Shown here: positions 3,200 through 51,999 of the stretch, one piece after another
Layout of the letters: the number at the start of each line of letters is the position of its first letter
Numbering within the stretch: the first letter of the stretch is position 1
Assembly: GCA_032718475.1 (NCBI GenBank)
Contig: JAUCBJ010008389.1
Location: forward strand, 103,568 to 167,567
Reading direction: 5' to 3'
Origin: Nemertoderma westbladi
Lineage: Eukaryota; Animalia; Xenacoelomorpha
DNA length: 64,000 nucleotides
Position numbers and translations under genes: made by a program
Notes under the pieces: model-generated
Told to the model about the DNA's origin: nothing
The model's input: only the letters and a program-made list of their open reading frames with translations
Database searches by the model: none

Positions 3200-5565
3200 C
3201 AGATTTCACGCTGAATTCTGAACTGTCTATAACACTTGACAGTGAACATACCCTAGTATTATTTGGAGCAGAGGTTGTTACTGCTAATGACTTAATTTCT
3301 TTGAAATAACATGTCGATACATTGTGCTCATTGACTGTCTTATTTGGCCATGTGACTTCGCCCCCCCTAGACTCAGAAATTTGGGGGCATGTCTCCAAAT
3401 ATTTGAGTTTATTAATTGTTCTGCTGACAGACCTCTCGTTGGAATATCAGCCGGGTTCATTGAACCTGGACAGTGTCACCATTGGGCATTTAACTCGTTT
3501 GTTAATTTACGAATTTCTGCTAGGCGATTTTGAACAAACTGCTTACAGTTTTGGTTAGTTGATTTTATCAAACACAAAACGTCGTAAGCGTCAGCTATCC
3601 ACAAGTATACAGTACATTTTGTTGTTGAAAATCGTAGTCCTGTAAATGTGAACTTTGTTAATCTAGTCAAGATTAACGCCCCTAATAATTCTAGTCTGGG
3701 TATTGACTGTTTAGCCAGCGGGCATACTTTTGACTTGGCCGACAAAAGTGTGACGCTGACTGATGTATCAGAGTATTCTGCTCTGATGTATGTAACAGCC
3801 GCATATAATTGTTTACTTGCATCGGAGAACCCGCGCAATTGAATGGATACAATTTTTCGTGTTGTATTGAATAGACATCTGTTAATTTCGAAATGCCTGA
3901 GAACTAAAAGTCCATCAACCCATTTCATCCACAATGGAAGAAGGAGTGAAGGAATTTTCATCCCATTCAACCTTTTCCTTTGCCAAAGTTTGTAGTGTCG
4001 CTTTCATTGGAGCAGTGTGTAAGGTGCGAGAAACCCCAGTGGGTTGTAAATTCTTGCAATTAATTGCAGCACGCCCCTTTTTGATGGTGTAATGGTTCAT
4101 ATATATTTGCGAACACTACTTAGATCAAAACCTAATTTGTCATCATTTAGATGCCATAATTGCCCTAAAACGCGACTAGTGTTATTATTTTGTGGTTCAG
4201 GTTGTGCAATAGAAACTTTAGCATGTTTGAATATCTTCAAGTTTGTTATCTGTACTATCTATAGGATTTTTTGTGATTACTATTTTTGCTAGTTTCTATT
4301 TGTTTCATTTCATTTTCTTCGGTTTGATTGAAAATTTGTCTTAGTTCTTTATCGTTTGTTTTCCAACGACGAATATTAAAACCGTCTCTAGCTAAGATTG
4401 CCTTTGTCGCCAATTGGAGTTGTCGACCTTCTGATATGTCATTGACCCCCGTATTTAAATCGTCTACATGCATATTATTGTCTTGTAGTTTAGGGATTGC
4501 AGTCGCTTCTGGAGTACTTGCGGATTTCGATTCTAATTGTAAGCGATGTTCTAACATGGCACTTAATATGTATTGTGACGACGTCAGACCGAAAGCTGCA
4601 CCAGTGTATCTACATGCTTGGAGTTCTTGATTTTCTGAGTTTACATCTTTTATGTTTTTTATCCATAAAACGTAAATAGTTTCTGTCCGCTTGATCAATC
4701 TGACAACGCATAAATGCTTGTTCTTTATCGGCGCTTATTCCTATATTTTGGATGCGGAAATATAGTGAATTGCGGCATTTATAACGTTGTCATATCTTTC
4801 AAGGAGATCAGTTTTGATTAAACGCCGTAACAGCGATGATAGTTGCTTGGAGCAAAATGTGAAATGATCCAATAAACTTTCGGGATTAATTTTCCTCGGT
4901 ATTCCTACTGAATATAGACCATCTATTTTTGTTATATTTTCTATGATGTTTGTGGTTTTCTCATCAGCATCGTTTATTCCGATGCTTTCAAGTGACCAAA
5001 AATAATTCAACAAATTTATCAGATTATCATTGTTATTGTTAGTTTGTGATTTGTTCGACTCCATTGTTTGAGTTTCTATTAAGTTGCATGTAACATTGTT
5101 TGATTTGGTTAAATTTGTTGAACCATGAAAGTTTGTTCCATAAACTTTCCCTGATAGTAACCACCCTACTCCGCTGTCTATAGCTACGAAATTAGAGTCA
5201 GATGAGCGGATACAAGTACCGCTGGCAAACTCCCAGTAGTAGTCTGCCCCTACAAGTAGTTGTACTGGAAATGTATCATGTGAGTCTGACATTAATGTAG
5301 GATCTGCGAGATCTGTTGCCTTGAGTGAAAGTTTTGCTCTCCATTCACTAGAAGTTATATTATTTTGTAATGGCTCACATATTTTTGGTACAACAACTGC
5401 TTCTATAGCAGCAATTGACCCATTCCGCAACAACAAGTTTACTTTGAATATCTGGTGATTTAGCGCAACCTTCTTGCCTCCACCAAATCCTTGAACGGAC
5501 ATTCTTTCTTATCCAATTGGCCTTAAATTATGCTCGTTAACAAATTCTTGTGTAATGAATGTCCA
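3200..5565 (-). pseudogene. Decayed Bel/Pao pol fragment (protease, RT, RNase H)
   Basis: Protease LLVGADYYW and GWLLSG (4741-5502); RT FGLTSS and HVDDL (4255-4698); Pao RNase H GFSDASKQLYAA...SKSKVCPL...SIPRLELLGA (3476-3970). Multiple frameshifts. Confidence 0.88.
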
Positions 5566-5869
5566 ACAGTCTTCATAGAGCATCAACTTGTGATATTCTG
5601 AGAGACAAAGTATTCTGCTACACGTTTAGTATAGAAGCTAAACTTCTTAGTGTAAATAGCTTTAGTAACCATCAACCAAACGCAGGTAAAGTACGTGACG
5701 CGCAGAAATTTTAAAATATATTTTTTTTAATGTAAGTCCAAAATCCAGCGAATTGAGCACCTTGAGGTAATAAATGAGTCCACAGCAGCCAAGTCACGTA
5801 CTTTACCAAATTTTCCTCGGTATTCCTACTGAATATAGACCATCTATTTTTGTTATATTTTCTATGATG

Positions 5870-6620
5870 CTCATGGAATCACTGCTAACTGATCATACAT
5901 ACTGACTGCTGAAACATTGCAAACTCGTAACAATCAGTGTTCAATTGTTGTTTTATACTGCTATTTACTGTCAGTTCTTCATAATATGGTTGATGAATTA
6001 TTATATTTGGAATAACGATAAATAACCCCGAAACCCAATATTCTTGATATACCGAAGGTAAGAGAGAAAGGTTACCAATAACGATTGTGACTTATGTTGA
6101 AGTGGTTTGAAGTGAATCTAATGTTATTTGATAGACCCTACATGAGTCAGCCTGTGTTCCTTTTATATGTGACTAAAATCAGTGAAGATTGGCAGATTAG
6201 TGTGCAGTATTGTGCAGCATTGTGTATGAGTGAGTCTGTTAAAGAAGCAATTCCTAAAGAATGCGCCATATATGTGAATTATAATTAAGCCATATCGTTG
6301 TGAGTAGTTTAAGTCATAACTCTGTTTATATAGATAAAGCGCCACGTCCTAAAGGAACTGTTAATATTCCCGAAGGTGAATAATATTGTCAGAGATTATA
6401 TAATACTGTCAGTCGAATAATACATTAGGCTTACATAGCAATAAAATTAAACCGTCGAACCCAATCTCCCGGGAATCTCCAGCGGGTGAATGGTCGCGCA
6501 CAGATTGGTTTCGACTAGTGTAGTGAATCAAATACTTGTCATAGACTAAAAACAGATTTAATATCTAGAAGACATCTTAATTTGGTGGGTTAAACTGCCA
6601 AAGGTCTGAAAGCGCGAACA
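5870..6620 (+). repeat. 5' LTR of element 1 (truncated, last 751 bp)
   Basis: Direct repeat of 17057-17807, ending in CA. Confidence 0.9.
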
Positions 6621-8812
6621 TTAAAGGATATAGCTTCTTTGTTGCAGTAAGCAATAAAGTTGAAAGTACCGGTCAACCGGTACATCTGTAGGTCAGTAGG
6701 CCCAACTGCCAGAACCGGTACCAGTAGGCCTGACTACCTAACCACTCGGACCGGTACCTACAGCAGTACAGATACAGCAGTATTATTCGATTTTGATAGT
6801 TGTATACCGGTAGGTCTTAGTACTTAATCAGGGAACGGCCGCCCTGATTTTTTATTGAGATTTTACTTATTTCTGTCAAGTTTTATTTATTTGTAGGCCA
6901 GTATTGAACAGAAGGCGTGTAAGCCTGATCAGATTGTACAGACGATTTGTAGGCTGAGCTGTTGTCTGATTGCTGTTAAGTGTGTAGAGCACTTGTCCGA
7001 TTAAGTACGGTTAGGAAGTAGGGGCAGCCAATGCGGTAAGGTAAACCCCCAACTAAAGAATAAGTCGCACTACTGGGTTAGATCGCATACTCCCTAATCA
7101 TTTCGGAGTCTGCATGTCCTGTGGTTTATTTAGGCTTGAGAGTAGTCTGCCATCGTTTAGTCTGTACTTTGTTTGTGTAAGTCTGTACGGGTAGCGTATA
7201 ATTTTATTTAAATAATTTGTAGGCTGGATAGTTGTCTGGCTGTTATTATGTCTGAACGGATTGCCGCGTGTGTAGATCATCTGTCCGATTAAGTACGATT
7301 AGGCAGTAGGGGCAGCGAACGCTGTAAGGTAAACCCCCAACTAAAGAATAAGTCGCACTACTGGGTTAGAGCGCATACTCCCTAATCATTTCGGAGTCTG
7401 CATATACCGTAGTTTGTTTAGGCTTGATAGTAGTCTGTCAGTGTTCGGTCTGTATTTTGTTTGAGTAGTTTGTACGCGTAGCGTAATATTTATTATTCAG
7501 AGTTTATGCGATTATTCGCAACATTCAAGTCCCCAAGTTTGTTCCTACAGTAATTGTGTTTGTTATACATACCGCTATAGTTAAATTAACCTCGGTACTA
7601 CACGGGCTGCTTGGCGTAGGTAAAGACTGGTGATTTTGTGCATCGGTCACTCCAGCAGATGCCGTGGTTCTTTTAGCTGTTCAAGTATATTTAATTACTG
7701 ATTATCTGTTGTACAAGTACTCGTACCTAATTTAGGGTTTAGTGTACAGTGCTTTCCGAGAATAATTAGTGTAGGCATTATATTTGTGTTGTAAAGTGGT
7801 TGATAGGCACATTCGATTAGCTCTATTAACTTCTAGGTAGGGACACTCCGTGATACATAACGTAGTACCTATAGCGATACGGCTATAGGTCGTCAGGCGG
7901 TGGTATTTTCCTATCTGGACAACACAGCGTATTTACTACTACTTATTATTTCAAATACCGTAGTACCCTGTCCGTTGTAATAACCAGATTTCTAACCCTT
8001 TGTTAGGCTGGTTAGTAGACTTCTTGTAAAATTACCCTAAAAATTCGTATTTGTGTTTTTGTAAATTTTTGTGTTTATTTAGAGATTGTAATCTCACCCG
8101 AATTGTACGTAATTTGTAGTATTAAGTAACTTAGGTAAATTAGTATTATTTGTTTTAGTGTCTCATAAGTAACACTTCATTGAAAGCGCACCGCTTTGTG
8201 TAGTGATTACCCCCAGAAATAATAACATTTATTTCAAACATTGACAAAACCCATTAAAACGGGTATATATATATTATAAATCAAATCTAACGATTTATAA
8301 ATAGTAGGCCTACCATATAACAATTAGGTCTCAATATCAGTTGGACTACTGCTCAAATAACGGTAATAAAGTAAGTAAGTAACCAAGTAACCCTAAAATA
8401 CAGAAATTCAATTATTTAAAATAATTGATATACCGGTATTTACGATAGGCCTATTATCTTTATTTCTATAAATTTAGGCTGAAATTATACCGGTACTTGT
8501 AATTAATTCTAGTCCAGAATTATATATACTATAAATTGTAAGCTGTATACCGGTATTTCCGATAGGCCTATTATATATTTATATATATTTGTGCTAAAAT
8601 TATACCGGTATTCTGTGATAAACCTAGTCTGTAATAATACTTATATAGTTATATATACTATAAGTATACCGGTATTCTAATATATTATATATATATCACG
8701 CTACACTGAGTAGCAGTACCGGTAATTAATTACTAGGCTAGCAGTTAATACTGAGTTATTAGACTTACTCAGACTGTAATACAGCAGTAGACATTCAACA
8801 GTATACATAGTC

Positions 8813-11800
8813 ATGTCTGATACTAAGCAGAACCTGTCAGACAGTTTATTAGATGTAACTATCTGCGACTCAGATAGAGACGTACAACCGTCTGGTCATA
8901 AATCCAGTTCACCTCCCACTGTGAGGAAGGTCATCCCTCCAGTAGTAATAACAGAACCTAGGCTGGTCCAACATCGTAGGTCTATCATAGGCACTCGAGC
9001 TCAGGTCAAGCGGGACCAAAAGGCAGCGGAACAGCAACAACCCACTAGTCAAGAACTTATTCCTCAGCGGCCCAGCAGCTCCAGTAGTGAGGATACTGTA
9101 GAGCTGACACCCGAGAGCGGAGCAGAGATGACGGATGCGGTTTATACGGATCCCCTTCTCATCCTTCCTGCAGCCGTGCTCGCTGGGTTATTGATCGCGG
9201 TGGAAGAACACCAGATCGATTGGGCGAGAAGTCAACGGTCAACTAGAGATAGTTACGCGGGATACACTAGTGAAGAACTGAAGTCTATTGTCGAGTCGCA
9301 ATGGAACTTCCCCGGACCCGGACTCCCGTTTGATTTATCAGAAGCTGCCTGGGAAGACATACACCGGATGGGAGTAGCCAAGGAAACCATCGATCCAGCT
9401 GTGTGGAAGAGGTCCGCAGCCGGATACGCACAGGGATTCTTCAGCTCTATGGAGCGAATAGAAAAGCAACTTTTTCAACAACCTCAAGGACCTCAAGAGC
9501 AGGGATCGCTGCTTTATCAAGTTAGAGAAAGAGTTCTGCGGATTAGGCTAATCTTATCCGCCTTTGAGGAGGCTTCTAAAAGAAAACAAGACACGTCGTT
9601 GCAAGTTGCCGTAAAGACTTGGTTTCAACGGGTGAGTCGCCAGGTTCAAGGAGCAGCTCAGTGGAAAGCTCAGTTGGAGGAGCGCTCAACCCATGGAGAA
9701 TCAACAGACGCTACTTTTTCCCAAGTGGAAAGTGAAGCGACGGCAGAGAAACCGCATAAGAGGGATGCCATTGATATCTATCTGTCAGACTATCAGCGTT
9801 TTTTGGGAGATGAAGAGTTGAGGAGAAGGCTAGAGGGACTTAGCCCTAATAGCGAAGGAGCCAAACTCGTGTTAGATGCGATTGATGTGGATAGGTTAGC
9901 GGCGAACCAAGCTAAATTCGATGAACAACTCCGCATCGCTAGAGAACAAGAAGAACAAGTAAAGAAAAAACGTATAGAAGATAGAAAGACAACGGCAGTG
10001 GCAGCAGCAGTGGCAGCGGCAGAAGCCGAAAGAAAAGCGGCACTGGCAATAGCAGAGGCAGCGGCAGAAACCGAAAGAAAAGCGGCACTGGCAATAGCAG
10101 AGGCAGTGGTAGAAGCAGAACGGAGGGCATCTGAAGAGGCAACCCAACTAGAGTTGGAAATTCTTCAAGAGAAGCAAGACAACTTCAATAAACAGTTAAC
10201 AGCGAGCAATATGCAGATGATGAGTCGATCTACTCCCAAGAGACAGGGGTATACATCATCTGAGGAAGGCGATACCACCGACACTGAAGGCGGAGGAAAT
10301 CGATCTCGCCCAAGCAGACGTAAAAGAACATTCCACCGGCAGAAATTGCCTGATTTGCCTCCAGCTGTTAGAAGGCAACTAAATAACACCAAAGTAGGTA
10401 GTACAGAATCCACAGACCAAATAATTACAATAGAGAGACTCCCTACTATAGTAGATGAGCCTGAAATAATTAGGCCTGTTCTTGAAATCACCCCTTCGGT
10501 GATAGACATACCTGTGCTCCCTGAGACTACCTCTAAATTCCCTTTGCATAGCACTAAGCTACCTGTGCCCCGTAGAACTGCCCCGGATACAGTTCAGGTC
10601 CTGGACCCCGAGCGAATTATTCATAATTTGTCGCCCGTTGTCCCTCGTCCGCCCGCTACGACGTTGGCGGATCCCGTTTCGGCGGTTGATTGGGTAGACG
10701 AGAGACGGCGGGGGATGGATATTCTCCTCGGAGAGATGAAGGAGAATCGGATACGCTCCTCCCAACAGGTCCGAGAGTTGGAAGGGACTGTCCAACATTT
10801 AAAGGGAACAGTGAGGGAAAGCAAGTTAGAGTTGCAAGAAGTGCAGCAAAATATCGCGCTAGAGCGCGATAAATTAGTAAATTTACAAAAGGGTATACCA
10901 CCACCCCCTGTAACAATGTGTCAACCCGTTAGGTCTGAAGTATCTCATGCGCAAGGTGTGGAGCCTACACGCATCTATACTGCTAGCGAAGTAGAAACTC
11001 CTATAGTGAACCCTATTAAGGGTAATTATAGACCTGTTGATAGTGATATTCCCTATAGACTGGATCATAATCCGAGAAATTTATATACCGATACCTCGAT
11101 ATTAAATAGCACGATGGCCCAAGAAAGTTTTACGCGTCAAATGGCTAGAACCGAAGCCCGGCAAGCGGTAAAGGTTGGAGAGATCGTAAAGTTCAATGGA
11201 GATGAGATGAAGTGGTTACCTTTTAATGAATATTACAAAGATAACATACAGAACTCTGTACTATCTAATGGAGAAAAACTTAGATACCTCATCGAGTGCT
11301 TGGAAGGATCTCCCAAGTTAATGGCGTTAAGGTTTATTGGACATCCAGACGGATTAAGACAAGTTTGGGATACACTAAACATCAGGTATGGTAATAGGAA
11401 TAACATAGCTGGGTATTTGTATGCAAAGTTGGTAGCGCCCCGAAAGTTTATTAGCAGCGGGATTATAGAGTTTTCCGATGAAATTCAGGAGAGCTGCAGA
11501 CAATTAGATTGGCTAGGTAAGTCTCATGAGTATCAGAGTGCTATGGTTATTAGAGCAGTGGCTTCTGCTTTACCGAAGGGTGGAGTAGGTACACGCTGGG
11601 ATAGGAAAGTGTTATATATGATGGAACAACAACGACGAGACCCTACCATGGCTGATCTCATGTCATTCTTAGATGGAGAAGTGAAATTACAGCTCCTAAG
11701 GCAGTCTAGAGAGAAGACATTGGAAAACAAGGTAAGTGAGAAACCCGTTTCTAGGAGAAGGGTAACACCAGTATGTTATACCGACGACGGTGAAAGCCAA

Positions 11801-13762
11801 ACTTCTCAAGGGGAGGACAGCGGGAAAGACACTGACAGATCTTATGTCAATAAAATGCCTAAAGATCAGGTAAGTAAATCCGAGTCTCGACCCAATGACA
11901 GAAGGGAACCGGTACAAAAAACCCTTCCTACGTCTCCTAAAAGAATTCAGGTGAGAAAGCCCGAGGAAAGAACAAGTGTGCACCACATAGCACAGGTTAA
12001 AGTAAGTAACATCAAGCCGAAATGTGTGCTGTGCGACGGGCCCCACCGTTTAAATGCGTGTGATAAATTCCTGAGGAAATCACTAAAGGATAGACGTGAA
12101 GTCATGTGGGATAAGCGGTTGTGTTATAATTGCCTCAGACGAGGACACCAACGGCGAACCTGTAACTCCGACGCAAGGTGTGCAAAGTGCGGCGCAAAAC
12201 ATCATATCTTGTTACACACGGAATTCGAACGAAGCAGCCCGAGTCAGGTAAGTGAGTCCGAACTACATGTCCAATTCAGTGATGTGAACGACACTGATCA
12301 ATCTGAGATGGAAGGATTCTATACGGACGAGTTCTCCGACCAAAACGAATCCTGTTACCTAATAAACACCACCGCAGTGTATCGAGCACTCGTGTATGAA
12401 AAAGACACAGACAGCGACCTCACCCTAACTACTTCAGATCAACAACCATCTTGGAAAGCGCCAACTTCCAATATAGGAATCCGAGAATTTCCTGTAGTCC
12501 AGTTACGGGTCCACGGACCTCAGAAGAGCTATATAGTGAACGCCCTCCTGGACTCCGGTAGCACAGGAACATTCATCGATAAAGAACTAGCCGAAGTCAT
12601 CTTTGCTGGACAACCCATGTTCCGAACCAAGCTAAACATGTCAGGAATCATGCAAGTTTGGAAATCTACAGTAACAGCTGATTATTATGTAGGCGCGTTG
12701 TCCACCCCCCAGGACGAACTAGGAGAACATAGCATAAGGTCAGTGAAAATGGTGGCTATAAAGAACTTCGCTACTACTCAAGCAGACCTTTATAATTGGG
12801 ACGAGGATGAGAGCATCCAACATCTTAACATACCTCGATTCCAGACTGATTATCCTGGAGTGCAAATACTCATCGGCCAAAACGCGCATGAGGCGCTGGA
12901 GACATTAGAGAAACGACCTGCTCAACCGCAGCCACTACAGACCTATGCGGTAAGAACTAGAGTAGGTTGGTACCTTACTGGACCTTCCCGTAGAATGCTC
13001 AGGGAAAGACTGCTTCAAGATCGCGTCTGCCAGGTGAGTGAATGGGAAGATGATACTAGTGAGGGAGACGACCCAACTGAGGGAACACCACACTCCTCAG
13101 ATAATGACAATCTTAGCTCCAATGTAGATCAATGGAGATATTGCCCCAAGAAGTTTAATCCAACGGACATCGCTTTCAGAGGAGCGACTCCTCAAGAACT
13201 GACAGATACTATAGACCGGTTAGGTGAACCCGACTTCCTGAGTAAGGAGAATGAATGGCCTCCCCATCTTACTCCGACTGAGATTAGACCAGCCAAGGGA
13301 GCGGAGAAAGTCGAACCTGAAACCCGGACGGGTGGATCGGAGTTATTTGAACCCGGGATAGATCTGTCGGTATTACATGTTGCCAGGGACGACGCCGTGG
13401 ATCTGGGCCTCCCCTCCGCGAGTGGATCCTTCATGAAGATCAGAGAGAGCGATTGGAGCTCTGGAACATCAGACGTCTCTCAGGGACTCTCACCTCTCCT
13501 GCAGAGAGCGACGGACCACTATAGCTCCTGGAATCGGCTTTGTGACGCCGTCATATACTTTGAGCGATGTTTCTATCGTCACTATTCCAGGACGAAGAGG
13601 AAACCTGGAATTGTATTCAGGATGCAGCGACTCAATCACCCAGTCGGTCGTTTGTGTTTATCGGAAGGGAATGGAGGACTCTCCGGAAACTGTGGAAGGC
13701 AAGATTCTCTTCCCACGACCACCTCCCTAATCCTTCAAACATCTAGGGACTCCATAACGTAA
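8813..13762 (+). CDS. Bel/Pao Gag-protease polyprotein (1649 aa) lacking RT, RNase H core and integrase
   Basis: Pao gag core KFNGDEMKW...EKLRYLIECLEG; three knuckles CVLCDGPHRLNAC, CYNCLRRGHQRRTC, CAKCGAKHHILLH; protease ALLDSGS...ILIG...RTRVGWYLTG. It then jumps in frame to the post-RNase H remnant WRYCPKKFNPTDIAFRG...PDFL...WP. Confidence 0.9.
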   Translation: MSDTKQNLSDSLLDVTICDSDRDVQPSGHKSSSPPTVRKVIPPVVITEPRLVQHRRSIIGTRAQVKRDQKAAEQQQPTSQELIPQRPSSSSSEDTVELTPESGAEMTDAVYTDPLLILPAAVLAGLLIAVEEHQIDWARSQRSTRDSYAGYTSEELKSIVESQWNFPGPGLPFDLSEAAWEDIHRMGVAKETIDPAVWKRSAAGYAQGFFSSMERIEKQLFQQPQGPQEQGSLLYQVRERVLRIRLILSAFEEASKRKQDTSLQVAVKTWFQRVSRQVQGAAQWKAQLEERSTHGESTDATFSQVESEATAEKPHKRDAIDIYLSDYQRFLGDEELRRRLEGLSPNSEGAKLVLDAIDVDRLAANQAKFDEQLRIAREQEEQVKKKRIEDRKTTAVAAAVAAAEAERKAALAIAEAAAETERKAALAIAEAVVEAERRASEEATQLELEILQEKQDNFNKQLTASNMQMMSRSTPKRQGYTSSEEGDTTDTEGGGNRSRPSRRKRTFHRQKLPDLPPAVRRQLNNTKVGSTESTDQIITIERLPTIVDEPEIIRPVLEITPSVIDIPVLPETTSKFPLHSTKLPVPRRTAPDTVQVLDPERIIHNLSPVVPRPPATTLADPVSAVDWVDERRRGMDILLGEMKENRIRSSQQVRELEGTVQHLKGTVRESKLELQEVQQNIALERDKLVNLQKGIPPPPVTMCQPVRSEVSHAQGVEPTRIYTASEVETPIVNPIKGNYRPVDSDIPYRLDHNPRNLYTDTSILNSTMAQESFTRQMARTEARQAVKVGEIVKFNGDEMKWLPFNEYYKDNIQNSVLSNGEKLRYLIECLEGSPKLMALRFIGHPDGLRQVWDTLNIRYGNRNNIAGYLYAKLVAPRKFISSGIIEFSDEIQESCRQLDWLGKSHEYQSAMVIRAVASALPKGGVGTRWDRKVLYMMEQQRRDPTMADLMSFLDGEVKLQLLRQSREKTLENKVSEKPVSRRRVTPVCYTDDGESQTSQGEDSGKDTDRSYVNKMPKDQVSKSESRPNDRREPVQKTLPTSPKRIQVRKPEERTSVHHIAQVKVSNIKPKCVLCDGPHRLNACDKFLRKSLKDRREVMWDKRLCYNCLRRGHQRRTCNSDARCAKCGAKHHILLHTEFERSSPSQVSESELHVQFSDVNDTDQSEMEGFYTDEFSDQNESCYLINTTAVYRALVYEKDTDSDLTLTTSDQQPSWKAPTSNIGIREFPVVQLRVHGPQKSYIVNALLDSGSTGTFIDKELAEVIFAGQPMFRTKLNMSGIMQVWKSTVTADYYVGALSTPQDELGEHSIRSVKMVAIKNFATTQADLYNWDEDESIQHLNIPRFQTDYPGVQILIGQNAHEALETLEKRPAQPQPLQTYAVRTRVGWYLTGPSRRMLRERLLQDRVCQVSEWEDDTSEGDDPTEGTPHSSDNDNLSSNVDQWRYCPKKFNPTDIAFRGATPQELTDTIDRLGEPDFLSKENEWPPHLTPTEIRPAKGAEKVEPETRTGGSELFEPGIDLSVLHVARDDAVDLGLPSASGSFMKIRESDWSSGTSDVSQGLSPLLQRATDHYSSWNRLCDAVIYFERCFYRHYSRTKRKPGIVFRMQRLNHPVGRLCLSEGNGGLSGNCGRQDSLPTTTSLILQTSRDSIT

Positions 13763-16572
13763 CAACATATGGAGTGGGTGTGTGACTCTATTATTTTATA
13801 TTATTATTATTATTTTTATATTTATGTATGTATTACTATGTAATTTTATTATAATCGTTTTATTTAATTTAGTAGAATATTATTTAGCGATTATTTTGTA
13901 GAATAGTGCAATATATTCGTGTTTATTATGTACATACTTACTTATATTATATTTAGTGCGACGGCGAAGAAATAATTATTTTTCTCTTTCCTTACTGTCC
14001 GTATTATATTATAAATACGTAACTACAGTAAGATGAAATGTCTGTACTTATTAAAGTACAATAAAGCCACTACTATATTTAAGTATTATTGGTAGGCAGA
14101 GTATTAGGAATGCAAAGTTCAGATCCTCGTGTCTCGGCTAAACCAAGCTCTGGGTAGACCTTGGAAACGACTTGCCTCTTCACACTGACATTGCTTCGTG
14201 CGATATTGCTCTCATACCGTATATTAAATAATACATATAGTAGCGTGATGTCCCTTTAACAGTAGCGTATAACGCAAAATAAATCTGTTAAACCCTTTGA
14301 CCATCTGTAATTCTAGTCGATTAAGATATCGTGGCACCCACCGATATACTTGAAAGACAAATTATAGAATCAGTGGTTAACGTCCCCAGACAAGTTCTGG
14401 AATAAATCGGTGCCCATCTCAAATATTAATTAGTTAATATTTACAAATCAAATAAGTCAAAATCTGTAAAATTCAGATCCTTCAACAATTCTAGTCAATT
14501 AAGATATCGTAGCATTTACCGATATTCTTAAAAAAGACAATTGTCATAGAATTAAGGATCTTGTGTCCCTAGACATGTTCTAGAATCAAAATATGTCCAT
14601 TTAATTATCAAATAATAAAATTTCAGGGAATAAATTTAAATTCATGTCTTTTAATGAATTTAATAAATTGCCATTTTTACGCAATTTATAAAGTTCCCAA
14701 AATTCCATTAATTAATAGATCAAGGGAGCGGAGATTTATCTTATCATGCGTATGAGTGTGTGAAAGTCTCCCAAACATAGTCAATAGCCGATAAAATTCA
14801 TAAAGTCATGTATAAAACAGAACATTGACTATTAAAGAATACTATTAAATAACATCCCAGATCTGTATGCATTGGAATTACTCTAATTCTACCGCTAGCT
14901 TTGCATAATGTCACCATAGCAACAACCACGCTAGAATTAGAATTGAGTTAAAAGAACAATAGAAAGCTTGTCCCATTAAATAGCATAGGGAATAAATAGC
15001 GCACTACTAGTATCCAAGGATACATAATAATACAGTGACATTCTGGAAGGTATTGACTAACGGACAAATTGCCCGAATGTGTGTAATTTGTGACAAGTTG
15101 TGTGTGTGGTATTTGTGAGTTTATAGGTGAATGTTACTGCTAAGGTGTGTTTACAGTAGCCAGTCGCAATCGTAAAGTAACCTAACTCTCCAAGGAATAC
15201 CTGAAGTACATCTAAGCCTTTGGGACGGACAGTCGAGTGACTTGTGCCAGTTGTCGTTGTCGTTGTGCGGCTACGTCGTTGGCGAAAGTACGGCGGCGAC
15301 GACACATCGGCGCTGAGGATCTCGTCCTGTCCGGGGGTTGATTGAGGTAGGCAGCGACGCCCGCTCGCCTAAATATAAACTCATTATAATATGGATAAAC
15401 TCATATATAGCAGATATGACGGAGTTGATAGAAGATGGTCTTGTCATCCTATCGATTTACACAATACGGACTATGTCGGCTATATATCCTGCCCAGCGGA
15501 GTCGGAACCATAAACGGAAATTCGAATGCGAAAATTCTATTCGAAATCGACTCGAAAGAAAAGACACTTAAGAAACAAATGGACGCGGTAACTCCAACGT
15601 ATATTTGGAATTCTTGATAGAAGCATTGTAACAACAAATAAATATCACCCGCGTTTACCCTACCAGACGTGCGTCTTTGGTATTATTACGATAAATGCCC
15701 TAGACCCAACTAATAAACGGAAAGACATAAACATCCACGTAAACCGAAACTTGTTGACGTATCACCTATGCTCACTCGGTTCGAACGATCCTGGAGTAAA
15801 CCTACGATCAGAGTCCCGGAATACTCGGTCAAACCTCCTCATTCCTTAGTTGGACCTCAGACCTGCGATCTTGGTGGTGTCGCGGATCCTCGCGGACTGT
15901 ATTCACTGTTCAAAGATCTAGTGCTACCCTAACAATTAATCGGTAACACTCCGACAGTGATTTCTAGCTAGCCGCCCATCTTACCTAGCCGGATTGTGAC
16001 GCGGACACCTAATATCACTATCCAACCGTATGGTCGTCCACGTTTAACGCGATACAACCCCTCATCAAGGTGAAGGAGAGCGTTGTACGAAACGAGTTAA
16101 ACGCTATTTTATAAAGATCAAAAAGGAAACCTGCGTTTGTTCAGATAAACGTAAGTTATAACAGTGAGTCCAATCGATAAACGAATTGGCCTTATCTCAA
16201 TTCGATTGGGAAATCCAGAATCTCTAAGAAGTTATCGAACTTGGACGATCCTATTCTCTGCGAGAGTTTTTGGATGAACGTATCCAGCTACGAGCGGAGG
16301 AAAATCAGCTCGAGGAGAAGCAGATCGAAACGGCAGATACCTCGACCACAATCCTACACCTTCTGATGCAATCATATTGCACCCTTCACCCAGGAGTTAT
16401 GGCCCTCCTAGTAAAGTGGCTCCCCCCAAAGAGAAAAAGACTCTTGCTAGCCTCAAAAAACTGCGTAAACGCCGTCTGCGTAAGAAAGACTAACTGTTTA
16501 GAGTATCTTTATGTTTTTAGAAACTGTGATTTTTATATTTTATAGACTGAAAATCCCATTTTCTGGGAGCGG

Positions 16573-17807
16573 TGTAAAAGCCTTTGCTGAATTGCCCCGT
16601 TATTTTTATTATCTTTTACATTAAAATACTCTGTAGTTGATTTAATAAGTGTAAGAGACCGTATTATTGCTGTATCGGTGTTTTTAGAGGATCTAAGACC
16701 TATTTCCTCCGTATGTGTACTGTGAAAGGCATATTTTATGATTCTATGGCAATTCGTGACGCAAAGGGGTGATAGCTACTCTTGAACAGTAGTTACTATG
16801 ACTACGGTTAACAGCTGACATTCATACGTGTTGATTTCCTTTGTTCTACGGCGTCTCTCAGTTCAGTCAGCCAATTAGAGCGTTTTGTGGCTCCTTGTAC
16901 AGAAAATTTCCGAGAAATGACGCAATGCCTATGTGCAGTGTTTACATTCAGTCCTGAGCCAAAGAAAGAACGGCTTGAAAGTATTTTGTGCTTTACTGTT
17001 TTTAGTCTTACACTAGTAGGTTTAATTACAAGGACATATATCCTTTAACTACCTGACTCATGGAATCACTGCTAACTGATCATACATACTGACTGCTGAA
17101 ACATTGCAAACTCGTAACAATCAGTGTTCAATTGTTGTTTTATACTGCTATTTACTGTCAGTTCTTCATAATATGGTTGATGAATTATTATATTTGGAAT
17201 AACGATAAATAACCCCGAAACCCAATATTCTTGATATACCGAAGGTAAGAGAGAAAGGTTACCAATAACGATTGTGACTTATGTTGAAGTGGTTTGAAGT
17301 GAATCTAATGTTATTTGATAGACCCTACATGAGTCAGCCTGTGTTCCTTTTATATGTGACTAAAATCAGTGAAGATTGGCAGATTAGTGTGCAGTATTGT
17401 GCAGCATTGTGTATGAGTGAGTCTGTTAAAGAAGCAATTCCTAAAGAATGCGCCATATATGTGAATTATAATTAAGCCATATCGTTGTGAGTAGTTTAAG
17501 TCATAACTCTGTTTATATAGATAAAGCGCCACGTCCTAAAGGAACTGTTAATATTCCCGAAGGTGAATAATATTGTCAGAGATTATATAATACTGTCAGT
17601 CGAATAATACATTAGGCTTACATAGCAATAAAATTAAACCGTCGAACCCAATCTCCCGGGAATCTCCAGCGGGTGAATGGTCGCGCACGGATTGGTTTCG
17701 ACTAGTGTAGTGAATCAAATACTTGTCATAGACTAAAAACAGATTTAATATCTAGAAGACATCTTAATTTGGTGGGTTAAACTGCCAAAGGTCTGAAAGC
17801 GCGAACA
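16573..17807 (+). repeat. 3' LTR of element 1 (about 1235 bp)
   Basis: TG...CA ends, preceded by a PPT-like GGGAGCGG; AATAAA near 17627. The start is inferred from the PPT/TGT junction because the 5' LTR is truncated. Confidence 0.8.
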
Positions 17808-18480
17808 ACTGGCAAACTCCCAGTAGTAGTCTGCCCCTACAAGTAGTTGTACTGGAAATGTATCATGTGAGTCTGACATTAATGTAGGATCTGCGAGATC
17901 TGTTGCCTTGAGTGAAAGTTTTGCTCTCCATTCACTAGAAGTTATATTATTTTGTAATGGCTCACATATTTTTGGTACAACAACTGCTTCTATAGCAGCA
18001 ATTGACCCATTCCGCAACAACAAGTTTACTTTGAATATCCGGTGATTTAGCGCAACCTTCTTGCCTCCACCAAATCCTTGAACGGACATTCTTTCTTATC
18101 CAATTGGCCTTAAATTATGCTCGTTAACAAATTCTTGTGTAATGAATGTCCAACAGTCTTCATAGAGCATCAACTTGTGATATTCTGAGAGACAAAGTAT
18201 TCTGCTACACGTTTAGTATAGAAGCTAAACTTCTTAGTGTAAATAGCTTTAGTAACCATCAACCAAACGCAGGTAAAGTACGTGACGCGCATAAATTTTA
18301 AAATATATTTTTTTTAATGTAAGTCCAAAATCCAGCGAATTGAGCACCTTGAGGTAATAAATGAGTCCGCAGCAGCCAAGAGGTAATATTGCTGTTTCCA
18401 AAACAGCCTTTATTGACATTTCAAACTTAACAATATTGAGGGAATTTGATGTAAAACAAAGTAAAGTACGTGAGGTAGAC
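17808..18480 (-). pseudogene. Duplicate copy of the decayed Bel/Pao protease region
   Basis: 17809-18380 repeats 5222-5793 almost exactly, then continues into the AVLETAILPL protease-leader motif. Confidence 0.8.
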
Positions 18481-20853: not shown

Positions 20854-22651
20854 ATATTTCGAGCGGTAGAAACTTTATTATTATAAATAGGTCGCGTTCG
20901 TAGGTGGTGTCGCTGTATCGAGTCAGACATGGTTAAATAATTATTATTATTTTGTGGTAGAAAATTATAAATTTGTTAAATTATTTGTTGGTATAATTAA
21001 TTATCGGTTGAAATATTTGTTGGTATAATGATAATATTATAAATACAATAACCTTACTTCGTCGTAGCTCGCCCCACTACTCATTAATGGCACCCATATG
21101 CTAAGGCTTCACTCGCTTCATGGCTCGCCCCATTTTTTCAATGTTGGAAGGAATGATGGGGATGTTGGGTGATGGTGGTGGTGGTAATGATGCTGAGGAT
21201 GAGGAAGAAGACTGGGCGGATGGCGATAGCGGGATAAGCGGGTGAGGTGGTGGGAGAAATTTTTAAACCTTTTTTAGTTGTTGCGTCATAACATTACTTC
21301 GATGCTATCACTCACTTCATGGCTCGCCCCATAGGTAGAATAATCAAATTAAAATAATATTATAAATACTATAACCTTAACCCATATGCTAAGGCTTCAC
21401 TCGCTTCATGGCTCGCCCCATTTTTTCATCAAATCACGAAATCATGTTAAAGACTTTATAACAAACGTCTGCAACCCACTTACTATATTGGGTTTTACCT
21501 ATTGCGGTTCAAGGTCAAACGCCAATCACTCACTTCATGGCTCGCCCATAAGTCTGTGTTTATTTACCTTTTTAGTTGTTGCGTCATAACCTTACTTCGA
21601 TGCTATCACTCACTTCATGGCTCGCCCCATAGGTAGAATAATCAAATTAAAATAATATTATAAATACTATAACCTTAACCCATATGCTAAGGCTTCACTC
21701 GCTTCATGGCTCGCCCCCATTTTTTCATCAAATCACGAAATCATGTTAAAGACTTTATAACAAACGTCTGCAACCCACTTACTATATTGGGTTTTACCTA
21801 TTGCGGTTCAAGGTCAAACGCCAATCACTCACTTCATGGCTCGCCCCATAAGTCTGTGTTTATTTACCTTTTTCAGTTGTTGCGTCATAACCTTACTTCG
21901 ATGCTATCACTCACTTCATGGCTCGCTATTATAAATACTATAACTTTATACTCACTTCACGGCTCGCCCCACAACTAGTTGCTTAGCAATAACTATAGAA
22001 TTGTAATATTGGTGGCTGTCGTTAGTTGAATACAATAACCTTACTTCGATGCTATCACTCACTTCATGGCTCGCCCCATAAGTCTGTATTTAGTTACCTT
22101 TTTAGTTGTTGCGTCATAACCTTACTTCGATGCTATCACTCACTTCATGGCTCGCCCCGTAGGTTGAATAATCAAATCATGTTAAAGACTTTTATAACAA
22201 ACGTCTGCAACCCACTTACTATATGGGGTTTTACCTATTGCGGTTCAAGGTCAAACGCGTGCGGTAGCCGCCGTTAGTCTGTGTTTATTCACCTTTTTTA
22301 GTTGTTGCGTCTGTAATAGTCTATCATGTTAAAGACTTTTATAACAAACGTCTGCGACCCACTTACTATATTGGGTTTTACCTATTGCAGTTCAAGGTCA
22401 AACGCCAACCGGTAGACGCGAATTAATTAAATTACTTCCGTCTGTGGACTGGCCTTATACCGCATATGTCACATATACACAGTGGTGACATATGTTACAT
22501 ATGCACAATGGTAACCATAGTAACCATAGTAAGTGGGTGGGGCAACAATAGTAATCATAGTAAGTAGGTGGGGCAAGAGCCGTTCGGCAAATTCTTTAAC
22601 ATGGTAGACTATGGCAGACACTGTCTCAATCCCGGTGTTTAGCATACTACT
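20260..22651. repeat. Right inverted arm of the Polinton, with 300-bp tandem units and terminal ACTACT
   Basis: Reverse complement of 1-1909 (position 1 corresponds to 22450), plus extra partial units at about 21900-22400. Followed by ATTATT, a candidate 6-bp TSD whose left copy is not visible. Confidence 0.88.
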
Positions 22652-27751: not shown

Positions 27752-30700
27752 CAACGACGACGACGACAACTATTTGCATAAATTGACCCACCCCCTAACA
27801 GTGTCAATTCGCTAAGGCTCCGCCAACTTCGTGGCTCGCCCCACAACTTGGATTCGTCCAATATAATATAGACTTGGAGGTATAGCACAAGGCTCACAAG
27901 GCTAATACACACTGTACGGTGTAAAAAGTAAAAGTAAAGTAAATTTTCTTCGGCCGCTAGGCCAGGGATTACGCACACAGTCTGACGACTTATTTCCAGT
28001 GCGGTCCCCCCAGAACTTTACTCCCCAGAGGTAACTCCAGTACTCTTTTAGCTACCACTTAAGGATGCAAGGCAGAGATGCGCCCTGGCTGGTCCCTTTA
28101 AAAAGCATTAGTGCCGAAACGAAAACTGCCCTGGCCCATGTGAGGATCGAACCCACGACCTATGGGAGATGTGAATTCAATGAAACCACTACACCATAAT
28201 GTGGAACCTCGTGTACATATCCGGAATCACTTAATACCGAAGAAATGAGTTAGTAAGGGTGTACAACATAGTATACGTTAGCCCATACTGAAGTACACGT
28301 TCGTGGGGCCTTCGCGCAGCACGAAGTGAGCAAAGCCATTAGCATATGGGCACCATTAACGAGTTGTCTGCCGTTAGTCAGAAGTCTTCAACACAATACT
28401 CGTCCTCCTCTTGTGCCTCGTTACGTTCGTTCGCTTTTGACCAAACTTCAGATTCTTTCTAAACTTTTGACGGACTACATACGTACCAAGTTTCGTTTAA
28501 TTTTATCGAGGAATAACCGAGTTATTAGCGATCAAAAATTTACGACGACAGACGACGACGACAGACGACGACGACGACAGACAACTCGCCAATGGCACCC
28601 ATATGCTTAGGCTTCGCTCACTTCGTGGCTCGCCCCACATAGGCATAGTATTACTGCCTAGGCACCGGGTACTACCTAGGCACCGGGTACTGCCTAGGCA
28701 CCGGCAACGTGTACACGTTCTCGGGGGCATTGCACAGCAGAGGCTCAGTTATGAGACACAAATTAAAATTGAGTGATTCTATTATAAAATCGGTACGGTA
28801 TTTTGTATTTAATATATTTAACCGCCAATAAATCAAAGAAGAGGGGAAAGTTCCTTCCCTTCAACCCCAAACCCCATTCCTAATCTGCAACACCCCAACC
28901 CAAAGGCGCACTGAGGATTGATGACAGGCAGGTATTGAAACAGCATGTGTTTAAAAGTAAGATATTTTAGACGTGGAGGCGTCAAAATGTGTACGAAATA
29001 TTAATAATTACCTTATGCCGATGTGGGGCGAGCCACGAAGTGAGCGAAGCCTTAGCATATGGGTGCCATTGGCGAGTTGTCTGTCGTCGTCGTCTGTCGT
29101 CGTCGTCGTCGTCTGACGTCGTAAATTTTTGATCGCTAATAACTCGGTTATTCCTTGATGAAATTAAACGAAAGTTGGTACGTATGTAGTCCGGCAATAG
29201 TTTAGAAAGAATCTGAAGTTTCGTCAAAAACGAACGAACGCAACGAGGCACAAGAAGAGGACGAGTATTGTGTTGAAGACTTCCGACTAACGGCAGACAA
29301 CTCGTTAATGGTACCCATATGCTAGAGGCTTTGCTCACTTCGTGATGGGCGAAGACCCCACGAACGAGTACTGTTACTGTAGCCTTGATACTGAAATATT
29401 ATTGAATTAATTTTTCTTTTTTCTTTTTAAAGTTAGCTAATATATTTTTCATTCCTTGTGTAAGATAAGCTTAGATAATTACGTTTCTGGATTATTGAAT
29501 GTGGGGCGAGCCACGAAAGTAAGCGAGCTTAGCATACAGGTACCACTAACTCAATCGTTGTGTCTGTTTTCTGTCGTTCTGTCGATCTGTCGTGTTCAAC
29601 TTTAAACGTTAATAACTCAGCCAAATCTCGATGAAATCTATCCAAACTTGGTACACATGTTGTTTGACAAAAGTTTAGAAATTTTCAAAGTTGAAACCTG
29701 AATTTGCGTGTGGCCTTCGTGAAGGTAAGATAAATGTGGCCTTCGAGAAGGTAAGATAAATTAAGTTAATTGATTACTTAAGTTGATTACGGTAAAAACA
29801 GCATTTTAAACCTGCCTTTTATGGAAATTAATTATTTTATAGTATAAGCTATGCATAATTATACTTAAAAATTATACAGCTGTAATCCCCATACCCCATT
29901 CCATTATAGTTTTTAATTAGTTCAAGTGATTTGGTTTAAGAAATGTGTTTTTATTAGAGCTAAACGTAATTAAGTTATTAAAATGCCATCGCCACGCTAT
30001 ACTTCCCTCTCTCATCCCGTCATTCTATACTTCCACCTCCATCATTATTTGGCATGCTATTGCCTAGCCCAACTGCTGGCGCGGGGAACCAGTCCAACCA
30101 CATCAACACTTTACTCGGCCAGCAATGGGTAATTACATAATCTATAGGACATAGGCATAGTAGTGTAAGGTGCCAGACTATGAAGCCGCTTGTTATTACA
30201 GTATTATTATTTATCTCGCAAAATGATTTCCTGAGTATTTAATCGTGATTCTTTATAGAATAATTATCTAAATAAATTCGTTGATAAATTAATATTTCAG
30301 AATCAATACTATCGGCATAAGTTAAGTTTTAATTTCTTACAAATTGTTTCGCCTCTATGCCTAAAATTTGAAACACAAATTTCCTGTTAATAACTGCCTT
30401 TCATCAATCCTCTGTGCGCCTTTGGGTTGGGTTGTTGCAGATTAAGAGGGGGGCTGAAGGGGGGGAACTTTCCTCACTTGATTTATTCTTCTTATTATTT
30501 TTTTTATTATTATATTAATGTATAATAATAAAAATATATGTTATAACAATTATTAATATTTTATAATTATAATACTCATAATAATTAATATTTAATAATA
30601 ATTATTATTTATTATATTTATTATTATTTTAATTATAATTATAACATACATTAATATATATATTTATATGTTATAATAATTATATTAATTGTGAATTTAT

Positions 30701-36472: not shown

Positions 36473-38509
36473 AAATAAAACTGAACTACCAAAAATACTC
36501 AGATGTTAGACTTTAGACTTTAGTGCACAATTATTGTAATCTTGTATTTAAAACAAATAATCGAATATTCACTTAATGTCGATCGATACATTACATACAT
36601 TCAAAATGTTAAGTAGGACGTACAGTAGTTAAGTAGGATTATATTGTTAACGACGTTAACAGTGCGAAACATAGGTCCTACACGTATTTGTGTTGTTGTC
36701 TTGCTCTTGTTTAGGCCTAGTGTAATATAACCTCCACTCCTAATTAATTTCAATTTACATAATCAGTCGTTTATCGACCTACTAAAATATTAATTTTACA
36801 ATAAATTTTAACAGGAAAATCACAAAAATATTCAGTTTCCACTAAATACATTAATTTATCACTCATATTTATTAATTATCACTACACGATCTATACTATC
36901 ACTCACAATGCAGTTTTATTTTACATAACAAAATTAATTATAATAATTCTAAAAATATAAGGCAGATTATCCTAAAGTTAGCTCTTTAGTCTTTAACAAT
37001 CTTATACATTGACAAGACTTATAAAATAATTGATGTTGAATAATTATTATTAAGATTAAAATATATTATTAGGAATTCGAAGAAAGCAAATTGTATTGAG
37101 TTAGTACAGTAGTATTGGCAAGTTAATCTCATAAACCAGTCTAGTCTAACTTTAGAGTAGCCTTGTTCGCATTGTTCCAGGTTTAGGCCTATAGATTCCA
37201 CCGTCTTCGTTCCAGGTTTAATACTGTAATAGACTCCGTTATCCGTCTCGATCGCTTCGGTATGCACCATCTTACTGGGTTTAATAAACTCCATCGCTCT
37301 GTTTTGTAGATTACTTCGCCATCGTCTGATCGCTTTGGTTGCGTGTTTAATATTGTAGCCTAATTCTAATAGTCGCCACCGTATCGTTCTGGATACATTG
37401 AATAGACTCCATTGTCCATCACGATCGTTTCATTGTTTACGTTTAATTGACTCCGTTGCCTCCTCGGATTAGGAATCCGGCCGGGTTTCGTAGATTCCGC
37501 CATCGTTCAGCAGTTCAGTGTTTTTAATCAAAGCCATAATTCCGGCACCACGATCAACGATTTCGAAAGTAGCAGACAGACAGACTCCGTCAACAACAAC
37601 ACTCGGGGAACAGGAACATACTATACTGTACAGTAGAATCCACTCTAATCTACTTTGCTAAGGTACTTTTGCACTTTATTATCTGTATCCCTTACGGTAC
37701 CGGTATCGATTTATGAATACGGGTACAATAAAATATAAGATGCACAGTACAATGGAAAGGAGCTAAACTAGAAATAACAAATATAGTTACCGTAGAAACA
37801 TCACCTAAATGTTATAATCACTGAAATTTGTAATCTTTAATAATTATGGTATGTTAACACTCAAACATGTTAGGTTAGGAAATAAATATCAGCCCAATTT
37901 AGATTCTTTACCTTGTCTAAAGTTACAGAAAGGCCATGATAATAAAAGGGCTACGGGTTCGAGGCCCAGGCCTTGCACGATTTGCAGTGGGCATCAGGGA
38001 GCTCGGGCGAGTCTCTGAGGCGAGAGTTGGGATGGAGAGGAGGATCGCCAAAACAGTCAACATCGGGATTACAGGCGACGCCCATGCCAGCGGGCGCCGA
38101 GGGCGATTTCGCGAAGAAAAGACCAGGGGAACTAGAAGGATGGAAAGTCACGGGCGAGAGCCAAGGTGGGAAGGGACACAGTGGGTCTACCGGGATACCG
38201 GGTTTGGATCTACTCCCAGCGGAGGACGAGGATGACGACGAGTTCGGGGAGATACCTCCCATCGAGAGGATCGGCCACTCAGACAGGGACTGGGTTTGCG
38301 GGAGAGTGGTGACGGCCAGCGGGGCGAGGGCCTTCTGGGATAAACCCGGTAAGCGGGCCTGGGCGCATGAGGAGCCGGCGATGGATTTCGTGGGGAGCAC
38401 CATCAGATTGAGCAAACAACCGGGAACGGCACCACGGGTAGTGTTCGGAGAGACGATGCCGAGGCGAGACAAGGACATAGATATGGACAGAGACGTTAAC
38501 GTCCAGAAG

Positions 38510-39050
38510 TGTTAGCTTATTCAATCCCGCCAACACCCCATAAAGTTATAAGCCGATAAGCAATATTGGGAGCCACGAGATTGGGCAATTAACCAACTCG
38601 TGCCATCCCAATAAGAGTGGGAAGGAAGCACACAATAGAGGGTCAGGGGCCAAACCCCTAACCCAGGGAGAACAGGTGGAGTGAACGGGAATACTCCACG
38701 GGGCGCCAACAAGGGTATTAACCAATCAGAGGGGGGGAATGGCATCGATTGAGTAGCAGTAAGGCCACCGTGCAATATAACCAATAACCTATTAATCAGT
38801 GATTCAGTTATCTCAGTGCAGCAGTGCTAGCGTAGGGTACAGTCAATTAGTTTAGTTAGGGGATCACGGGACTTTAGTTACCGTATCCCGCCTTGTACAC
38901 ATTATATCTATATCTATATCCTATGCCCTATTATTATTATACACCGAACTTCAGAACTCAGTCACTCTATTTCACCCTTATACACGGCGGGGACGCGTGG
39001 ACTAAATTACCACATCGGATAAATCGGGATCCCTCCTGGATCCCGTCACA
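38510..39050 (+). repeat. 5' LTR of element 2
   Basis: Direct repeat of 51459-51999. TATA-like AATATAA at 38774 and TCAGT initiator-like motifs at about 38796-38817. Confidence 0.96.
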
Positions 39051-39130
39051 GTAACTAAATCCGAGCTGCCGCCCCAGTTAAACTCTGAGAACTACACTGC
39101 TAGCTAGTCGAACTCCACCGAGCAGACGAG

Positions 39131-46852: not shown

Positions 46853-46959
46853 AATGGAGTTAGAGTGGAGTTTAGTCGTCCAAGCTTTGGACTGAGGGGG
46901 GTGGGATTGAGGGCGAGACGCCCTTCCCACACAAATAAAATAAAAATAAAATAAAAATA

Positions 46960-51458: not shown

Positions 51459-51999
51459 TGTTAGCTTATTCAATCCCGCCAACACCCCATAAAGTTATAA
51501 GCCGATAAGCAATATTGGGAGCCACGAGATTGGGCAATTAACCAACTCGTGCCATCCCAATAAGAGTGGGAAGGAAGCACACAATAGAGGGTCAGGGGCC
51601 AAACCCCTAACCCAGGGAGAACAGGTGGAGTGAACGGGAATACTCCACGGGGCGCCAACAAGGGTATTAACCAATCAGAGGGGGGGAATGGCATCGATTG
51701 AGTAGCAGTAAGGCCACCGTGCAATATAACCAATAACCTATTAATCAGTGATTCAGTTATCTCAGTGCAGCAGTGCTAGCGTAGGGTACAGTCAATTAGT
51801 TTAGTTAGGGGATCACGGGACTTTAGTTACCGTATCCCGCCTTGTACACATTATATCTATATCTATATCCTATGCCCTATTATTATTATACACCGAACTT
51901 CAGAACTCAGTCACTCTATTTCACCCTTATACACGGCGGGGACGCGTGGACTAAATTACCACATCGGATAAATCGGGATCCCTCCTGGATCCCGTCACA
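51459..51999 (+). repeat. 3' LTR of element 2
   Basis: Appears identical to 38510-39050. Confidence 0.96.

Follow-up and report, generated by a model that had tools for sequence, protein, structure and literature searches.

Bel/Pao retrotransposons are described as primed by a host transfer RNA (tRNA), either tRNA-Arg or tRNA-Gly, in the accessible part of the profile of the International Committee on Taxonomy of Viruses (ICTV; PMC8742986), and the first-pass annotation of the DNA analysed here agrees with that description. A tRNA-Tyr site is given for the Bel/Pao element Achilles (PMC4580426). Self-priming, by RNA derived from the element's own long terminal repeat (LTR), is established for Tf1/Tf2, and there are predictions of it for Tcn1 and for the copia TAR lineage (PMC6317226, PMC7175516). 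What is said here of these articles refers to the accessible parts of their text; that of De la Chaux and Wagner 2011 (PMC3118150) makes no mention of primer sites. A full-text literature search, outside which most subscription journals lie, returned no statement on Bel/Pao self-priming. The stretch analysed here ("the window") comprises 64,000 nucleotides of Nemertoderma westbladi contig JAUCBJ010008389.1 (assembly GCA_032718475.1, positions 103,568 to 167,567 of the forward strand). It harbors two Bel/Pao elements, E1 and E2, both on the plus strand, in which the bases directly following the 5' LTR complement a site in the element's own LTR, or, in E1, in what is probably its LTR. The best reading of this arrangement, and one that we hold to be rather probable, is Tf1-like self-priming, the 12-nt pairing of E1 being the family's own minus-strand primer.

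The E1 complementarity is real and non-random, and is one case of a recurring Bel/Pao arrangement. The 5' LTR (5870..6620) ends with GCGAACA at 6620. It is followed directly, without a TGG, by TTAAAGGATATA (6621..6632), which occupies the primer-binding-site position 3' of the LTR-terminal ACA. The exact reverse complement, TATATCCTTTAA, lies at 17037..17048 and forms the candidate self-primer, or partner site. Each of these 12-mers occurs once in the window. The letters, the coordinates and the pairing geometry are as the first-pass annotation had reported them, the 3'-terminal A of the LTR-side 12-mer standing opposite the first base after the LTR. Its rough estimate of the chance of such a match was below 1e-3. 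The match does exceed chance: under an order-1 model, the 12-mer is expected 3.2e-4 times in the 1.2-kb LTR, 2.3e-3 times in E1 as a whole, and 1.0e-2 times in the entire window. As a control, the longest boundary-anchored complement to the same LTR was taken for each internal anchor position of E1. A length of 12 nt is reached at 1 of 9000 positions, an empirical chance of 1.1e-4 (the E1 counts were run with an LTR start of 16575, 2 nt short of 16573, which leaves them unaffected). In RNAduplex, the 12-nt pairing is followed by a 2x2 loop and by 5 further pairs between AAGGA (17030-17034) and TTCTT (6635-6639), for -16.5 kcal/mol. The predicted extension of the pairing on the leader side (6633..6641) is made of a GC loop and then of TTCTT. 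The claim that the site is not that of a tRNA 3' end holds as well, the nearest TGG being 453 nt past the E1 LTR and CCA being terminal in every entry read from a table of metazoan tRNA 3' 12-mers. No Rfam family was found in the window.

E1 is assigned to Bel/Pao by its gag alone, since matches to pol domains are absent from this deleted copy. An open frame of 1660 codons (8780..13762) encodes a Bel/Pao gag, with DUF1759 (PF03564, E 3.1e-11) as its sole Pfam match; CCHC knuckles and a DSGS protease motif are recognized by eye in the translation. Reverse transcriptase and integrase domains were not found in this frame with Pfam, which indicates that the E1 copy is internally deleted. The 2.1-kb leader between primer site and gag contains a tandem duplication of ~288 bp (6980-7208 and 7268-7497, 88% alike).

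The same arrangement is found in E2, apparently an intact and very young Bel/Pao element (38510-51999). Its two LTRs of 541 bp (38510..39050 and 51459..51999, TGT...ACA) are 100% identical, the 3' LTR is preceded by a purine-rich tract, gggaagatagcatggggggga, and the target-site duplication reads AGAAG. The gag (39104-43735) shows DUF1759 (E 8.8e-11) and an aspartyl protease in Pfam, and the pol (43736-46852) shows Peptidase_A17 (3.3e-40), Integrase_H2C2, rve, and DUF5641; homologues of this pol are Bel/Pao-type proteins. The gags of E1 and E2 share 22% identity. At the primer-binding-site position of E2, directly 3' of the LTR, GTAACTAAA (39051..39059) is complementary over 9 nt, anchored at the boundary, to TTTAGTTAC (38873..38881) in its own LTR, 169 nt before the LTR end. 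The expected number of such matches is 2.8e-3, and 28 of 12100 control anchors do equally well (2.3e-3). The first TGG is located 219 nt downstream of the LTR.

Downstream of the pol, E2 carries tandem repeats (46960-47711) and then a third open frame (48186-50738, 850 codons) without Pfam match, possibly env-like. The element sits nested in an older relative, E2', of which three segments are visible (37994-38463, 52082-52986, and 53278-53459), matching E2 at 49455-49925 (83%), 50142-51055 (75%), and 51311-51493 (84%). This relative has the same purine tract and an LTR start, TGTAAGC; its LTR diverges downstream, and its 5' end lies outside the window.

Beyond the window, relatives were searched for with the E2 pol in metagenome contigs, yielding 79 Bel/Pao loci, of which 21 show a direct repeat pair. 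Both LTR ends fall within the contig in four families (L030/L032, L034, L066, and L079). In the first of them, the LTR of L030 ends with CCGTAACA and is followed by GTAAAAACT, to which AGTTTTTAC, 91 nt before the LTR end, forms a 9-nt anchored complement equalled by 19 of 6400 controls (3.0e-3); the first TGG after the L032 LTR comes at 40 nt. In L034 and L066, a TGG is found 2-3 nt after the LTR. By eye, the L066 site is identical to a listed metazoan tRNA 3' end and that of L034 is 2 mismatches off a tRNA-Tyr end, with an anchored match of just 5 nt. The LTRs of L079 are 77% alike and its anchored match is 4 nt. Boundary-anchored pairing therefore recurs in E2 and L030/L032, families unrelated to that of E1 and to each other, and tRNA-type Bel/Pao contigs are without it.

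Copies of the E1 and E2 families are very numerous in three DNA runs from the window's organism, and E1 also occurs in a run from a second organism (X6). Among the variants listed, none falls in 17000-17067 in four runs, and the adjoining 17068-17131 is variable. Over 609 nt, the X6 contig that spans the E1 site shows 25 differences and 21 gaps, with many located at 17068-17131. In this second organism, the same 12-mer, TTAAAGGATATA, follows the LTR end (X6 contig with a loose end at 17807). In some E1 subfamilies, 17048-17139 is replaced by 27 other letters, beginning right after the site. In E2, 38866-38893 and 39016-39086 are likewise without variant among those listed; of the E2 stretch, X6 covers 38700-38851. 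The depth of the E2 family is ~8-fold lower after 39060, and 6 of the 9 listed joints begin at 39053-39061, so that sharing among the E2 subfamilies stops at the end of the 9-10 paired bases. One minor E2 contig carries GTAATTAAA, a change that would retain a G-U pair, and one diverged E2 contig has other sequence after the same LTR end.

Several of the observations that follow weigh against self-priming. A search for tRNA genes gave none, either for the window or for 52 metagenome loci. It is conceivable, if highly improbable, that the E1 complementarity is due to chance and that the primer is a host RNA, for instance a mitochondrial tRNA, one half of a tRNA, or a different small RNA. The 12-mer is A+T-rich and could be chosen among several elements and pattern types. 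Moreover, the comparison with host tRNAs covered their 3' ends, and copia-type elements use tRNA halves (PMC6317226). Yet E1, with its chance of 1.1e-4, was followed by tests of two independent families, in which the arrangement recurs (2.3e-3 and 3.0e-3). The partners are without variants, among those listed, in variable surroundings. Since TTAAAGGATATA, GTAACTAAA, and GTAAAAACT differ and each fits its own LTR, a shared host primer would not explain them; no single host RNA fits all three.

Covariation between the two sites, proposed as a check in the first-pass annotation, is not what the variants display: the sites are co-conserved, and no compensatory change occurs among the variants listed. 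LTR alignments offer no covariation test, because L031 is not alignable with L032 and the E2' LTR diverges from that of E2 around the site. The blind scans count on the same side. Over 7986 ACA sites, matches of at least 9 nt number 15 for the reverse complement versus 13 for the reversed and 16 for the complemented sequence; with a poly(A)-signal filter, the corresponding numbers are 12 versus 15 and 4. As these scans are not enriched, three loci that they brought up are counted as post hoc finds and not as tests: L025 (11 nt, AATAAA 17 nt past the site), L033 (10 nt, AATAAA 1 nt past the site), and L054. In layout, the first two of these are similar to L032. When the best match per locus is retained, one pol clade gives 9 of 26 loci versus 2 and 3 in controls, and the other 2 of 17 versus 0 and 2. 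End-heuristic scans of contigs without two LTR ends showed no enrichment over controls and were left unused as tests. The matches of L020 (10 nt), L054 at 574, L059, L042, and others are likely due to chance.

A pol tree of 44 rows was calculated with FastTree from the 44 of the 79 loci having near-full matches, with L047 dropped and E2 added; L025 and L066 were read through with X. All four TGG-type loci (L034 and L066, with L010 and L011, whose primer-site type was assigned by eye) fall in one subclade with a support of 94. The five metagenome self-type loci (L030, L032, L025, L033, and L054) all belong to the other main clade, with a support of 100. E2 forms a long branch of uncertain position. 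This distribution suggests a lineage-level split of primer types, with few typed loci behind the tree, and counts in favour of self-priming. The gags of E1 and E2 are 20-30% similar to those of the metagenome loci, too low for clade placement, and single-protein and alignment searches of viral contigs returned no Bel/Pao relative.

Some short resemblances were also noticed among these loci. The 9-mer TATCCTTTA of the E1 partner site (17039-17047) is also seen by eye at L032:2071-2079, ending 4 nt before the L032 partner site, and TATATCCT is found, again by eye, in the E2 LTR, ~30 nt past the E2 site. In L044 (4914-5073), two 24-nt anchored complements within 160 nt correspond to a long inverted repeat near the contig end.

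The position of the partner site in E1 is a further point on the opposing side. The first-pass annotation had placed it inside the complete 3' LTR, a statement that needs qualification. Self-BLAST of the window aligns 5870-6620 with 17057-17807 (99.87% over 751 bp), and the site ends 8 nt upstream of this shared repeat. The partner site thus lies outside the demonstrated LTR repeat of E1, and the longest anchored match to the shared 751 bp is 5 nt. For it to belong to the LTR, the 5' copy of the latter has to be truncated. We infer that this is the case and that the LTR starts at 16573, with the TGT that follows a polypurine-like tract, GGGAGCGG (16565..16572), abutting this putative start. 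The 3' LTR would then extend over 1235 bp (16573..17807, TGT...ACA), with the repeat itself demonstrated for 17057-17807. Counted from this start, the partner site would fall at LTR positions 465-476, with 759 nt between it and the LTR end. It would have been lost from the 5' LTR, which matches the final 751 bp of its 3' counterpart.

No second copy in the window displays a start at 16573, and the LTR start is not revealed by the read-depth profiles. In the latter, the steps at ~16324 and ~17134 in DNA runs reflect sharing among subfamilies, and the depth of the E1 family drops directly after 17807. The pattern of GGGAGCGG followed by TGT (16565-16575) resembles the G-rich tract and TGT found before the LTR in E2, L020, L031, L032, and L034. 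The surroundings of E1 bear on the same question. A 61-bp copy (5809-5869) of 4888-4948, family D12, stands before the 5' LTR, and one base past the 3' LTR begins a 572-bp copy of 5222-5793 (17809-18380, 99.5%). The minus strand carries a third Bel/Pao fragment at 3476-5808 (Peptidase_A17 at 3476-4003), and E1 sits in a second, incomplete copy of it. From this second copy, the segment corresponding to 4949-5221 (273 bp) is missing at the E1 5' junction. By eye, no target-site duplication is present when both junctions are compared. Given the missing target and the lack of a target-site duplication, a single deletion reaching into a longer LTR is simpler than a deletion ending exactly at an LTR edge.

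A shorter E1 LTR of ~751-754 bp, starting at 17054-17057, is nevertheless to be weighed, and we judge it very unlikely. The two 12-mers would then be a pair of short inverted repeats bounding the internal region, close to where the polypurine tract is expected, or the trace of the rearrangement history of this copy. It is in line with the repeat visible in the window, limited to 5870-6620 and 17057-17807, and with the start of both copies, which by eye can be read as TG(A)CTCATGG. In two DNA runs, the family depth also increases by a factor of 3-4 around 17134, so that the downstream part is more widely shared. However, ends placed there have no target-site duplication and leave the 273 bp of target gone at the 5' junction. 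No purine-rich tract comparable to that at 16565-16572 precedes 17054. The partner site lies unambiguously within the LTR in E2 and L032, which also supports truncation of the E1 5' LTR. As a separate observation, the truncation point (equivalent to 17057) is 8 nt past the partner site, and the variable stretch 17048-17139 also begins right after that site; this closeness may be a coincidence or mark a recombination-prone boundary.

Transcription signals provide other counterarguments. In the E1 LTR, TATATAA (17584) and AATAAA (17627) each occur once, ~550-590 nt downstream of the site, and no clear signal is seen at the site itself. If they work, the site would lie in the unique 3' region (U3), absent from the 5' leader and present in the RNA near its 3' end. 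If E1 transcription instead starts at or upstream of 17037, a long repeat region (R) plus unique 5' region (U5) would result, and an internal cut would be needed. The distances from site to boundary are also dissimilar, 759 nt in E1 versus 169 nt in E2 and 91 nt in L032. In the predicted minimum-energy fold of the E2 leader (38806-39110), the site and the primer site are not paired with each other, and the energy is ordinary (z -0.27). In L032, the best RNAduplex pairing is found elsewhere in the LTR.

The signals of the two other elements are arranged differently. By eye, the first base of the L032 site is the A of a TCAGT, an initiator-like motif, and an ATTAAA is found 13 nt after the site. 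This layout is as expected if the site represents the first bases of R. In E2, an AATATA (38774) precedes TCAGT motifs at 38796, 38804, and 38813, which would place the site ~60-80 nt into the RNA. A scripted search for primers created by a splice junction (a split match with GT/AG borders within the LTR) gave none for E1 and E2 and one weak 7+4 split in L032. The matches of E1, E2, and L032 are contiguous, which sets them apart from the splice-junction class.

In Tf1-like self-priming, the genomic RNA of an intact copy would bear TATATCCTTTAA in its LTR-derived leader. This leader would fold back, and the site would anneal to the 12 nt adjoining the LTR. The element's RNase H would then cut after the paired stretch, and elongation from the new 3'-OH, exactly at the LTR boundary, would copy U5 and R into strong-stop DNA. 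We infer, for this scheme, the membership of the site in the LTR, its transcription upstream of the primer site, cleavage, and priming. The proposal of a self-priming Bel/Pao lineage made in the first-pass annotation is partly supported, by the lack of a tRNA 3'-end site and by recurrence in two families; upstream transcription of the E1 partner site and cleavage of an RNA into a primer are predictions of it. For E1, the reading hinges on the positions of the LTR start and of the transcription start. Since this copy has no reverse transcriptase and its 5' LTR no longer contains the site, it would be a remnant of the mechanism, not a functional case.

A wider version, in which a large metazoan Bel/Pao branch is self-primed and the E1-type primer is an internal or U3-derived stretch ~760 nt away, and not the transcript 5' end, appears doubtful to us. 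A primer of that kind would presuppose either internal cleavage of a long leader or a second genomic RNA whose 3' end supplies it, and would differ in this from Tf1. The E1 partners are 759 nt apart in the LTR, unlike those of L032 with their short hairpin geometry; this is also compatible with a pairing that is real and selected without being a primer. Such a pairing would circularise the RNA and aid strand transfer or packaging, like the CYC5-CYC3 contact of yeast Ty1, a role we consider unlikely. A contact of this type need not start at the first base after the LTR, yet it does so in all three elements with defined ends. Furthermore, no other primer site is visible, with no TGG for 453 nt in E1 and 219 nt in E2, and the E2 and L032 sites are well within the LTR, near initiator-like motifs.

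Compared with the known self-primed elements, the resemblance is closest to Tf1/Tf2. There, as here, a tRNA site is lacking and the stretch abutting the 5' LTR complements RNA derived from the element's own LTR, over 11 nt in Tf1 (PMC7175516) versus 12 in E1, 9 in E2, and 9 in L032. L032 is Tf1-like also in that its partner begins, by eye, at an initiator-like motif, as if formed by the first bases of the transcript. In E1 and E2, unlike in Tf1, the partner is located 759 and 169 nt before the LTR end, and is at most a putative transcript 5' end. The domains found here (DUF1759, Peptidase_A17, and DUF5641) are those of Bel/Pao, unlike those of Tf1/sushi, which are Ty3/gypsy chromoviruses. The proposed mechanism is thus Tf1-like without membership of the Tf1/sushi clade. 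For the Tcn1 clade (Ty3/gypsy) and for TAR/Houba/Osr-1 (Ty1/copia), self-priming is likewise deduced from sequence, among relatives that use tRNAs (PMC6317226). In the accessible text, these are plant or fungal gypsy or copia lineages, and none is Bel/Pao. With ordinary Bel/Pao elements (Belpaoviridae), the elements described here share gene content and TGT...ACA LTR ends. L034 and L066 have the TGG-type sites of that group, whereas E1, E2, and L030/L032 are without a TGG near the LTR and match their own LTR instead. A tRNA 3'-end primer site, which is a descriptive and not a phylogeny-defining feature of Belpaoviridae, is absent from E1 and E2.

Another short complementarity is known from Ty1, where CYC5-CYC3 joins the leader, near the primer site, with the 3' untranslated/U3 region of the same RNA. 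Ty1 retains a tRNA-iMet site beside it. In E1, E2, and L030/L032, unlike in Ty1, the pairing bases make up the primer site itself, starting from the LTR boundary.

Bel/Pao is the third superfamily of LTR retrotransposons. If self-priming is confirmed, tRNA-independent priming would have arisen, or been kept, in all three. Annotation pipelines that look for tRNA sites would miss or misjudge such elements, and the high-copy E1 and E2 families would provide natural material for mapping transcript starts and complementary DNA (cDNA) junctions.

The window contains other features of interest. At 30511-30657, an A+T-rich 12-nt anchored complement follows ATAACA (30646); its partner is at 30511, with a poly(A)-like signal 4 nt past it. 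No obvious LTR element surrounds this pair, which is likely a low-complexity chance match. Upstream of E1, GGTAAAGTACGTGAC and its reverse complement (5684-5698 and 5794-5808) form, by eye, inverted ends ~125 bp apart, like those of a miniature inverted-repeat element. This end motif recurs past 18380, near 18467, 18651, 18683, and 18838 (by eye). Finally, the E1 region is bracketed by a 1.7-kb inverted repeat (43-1912/20257-21926, 98.6%), which includes 300-bp tandem units at 43-1042 and 21267-22311.

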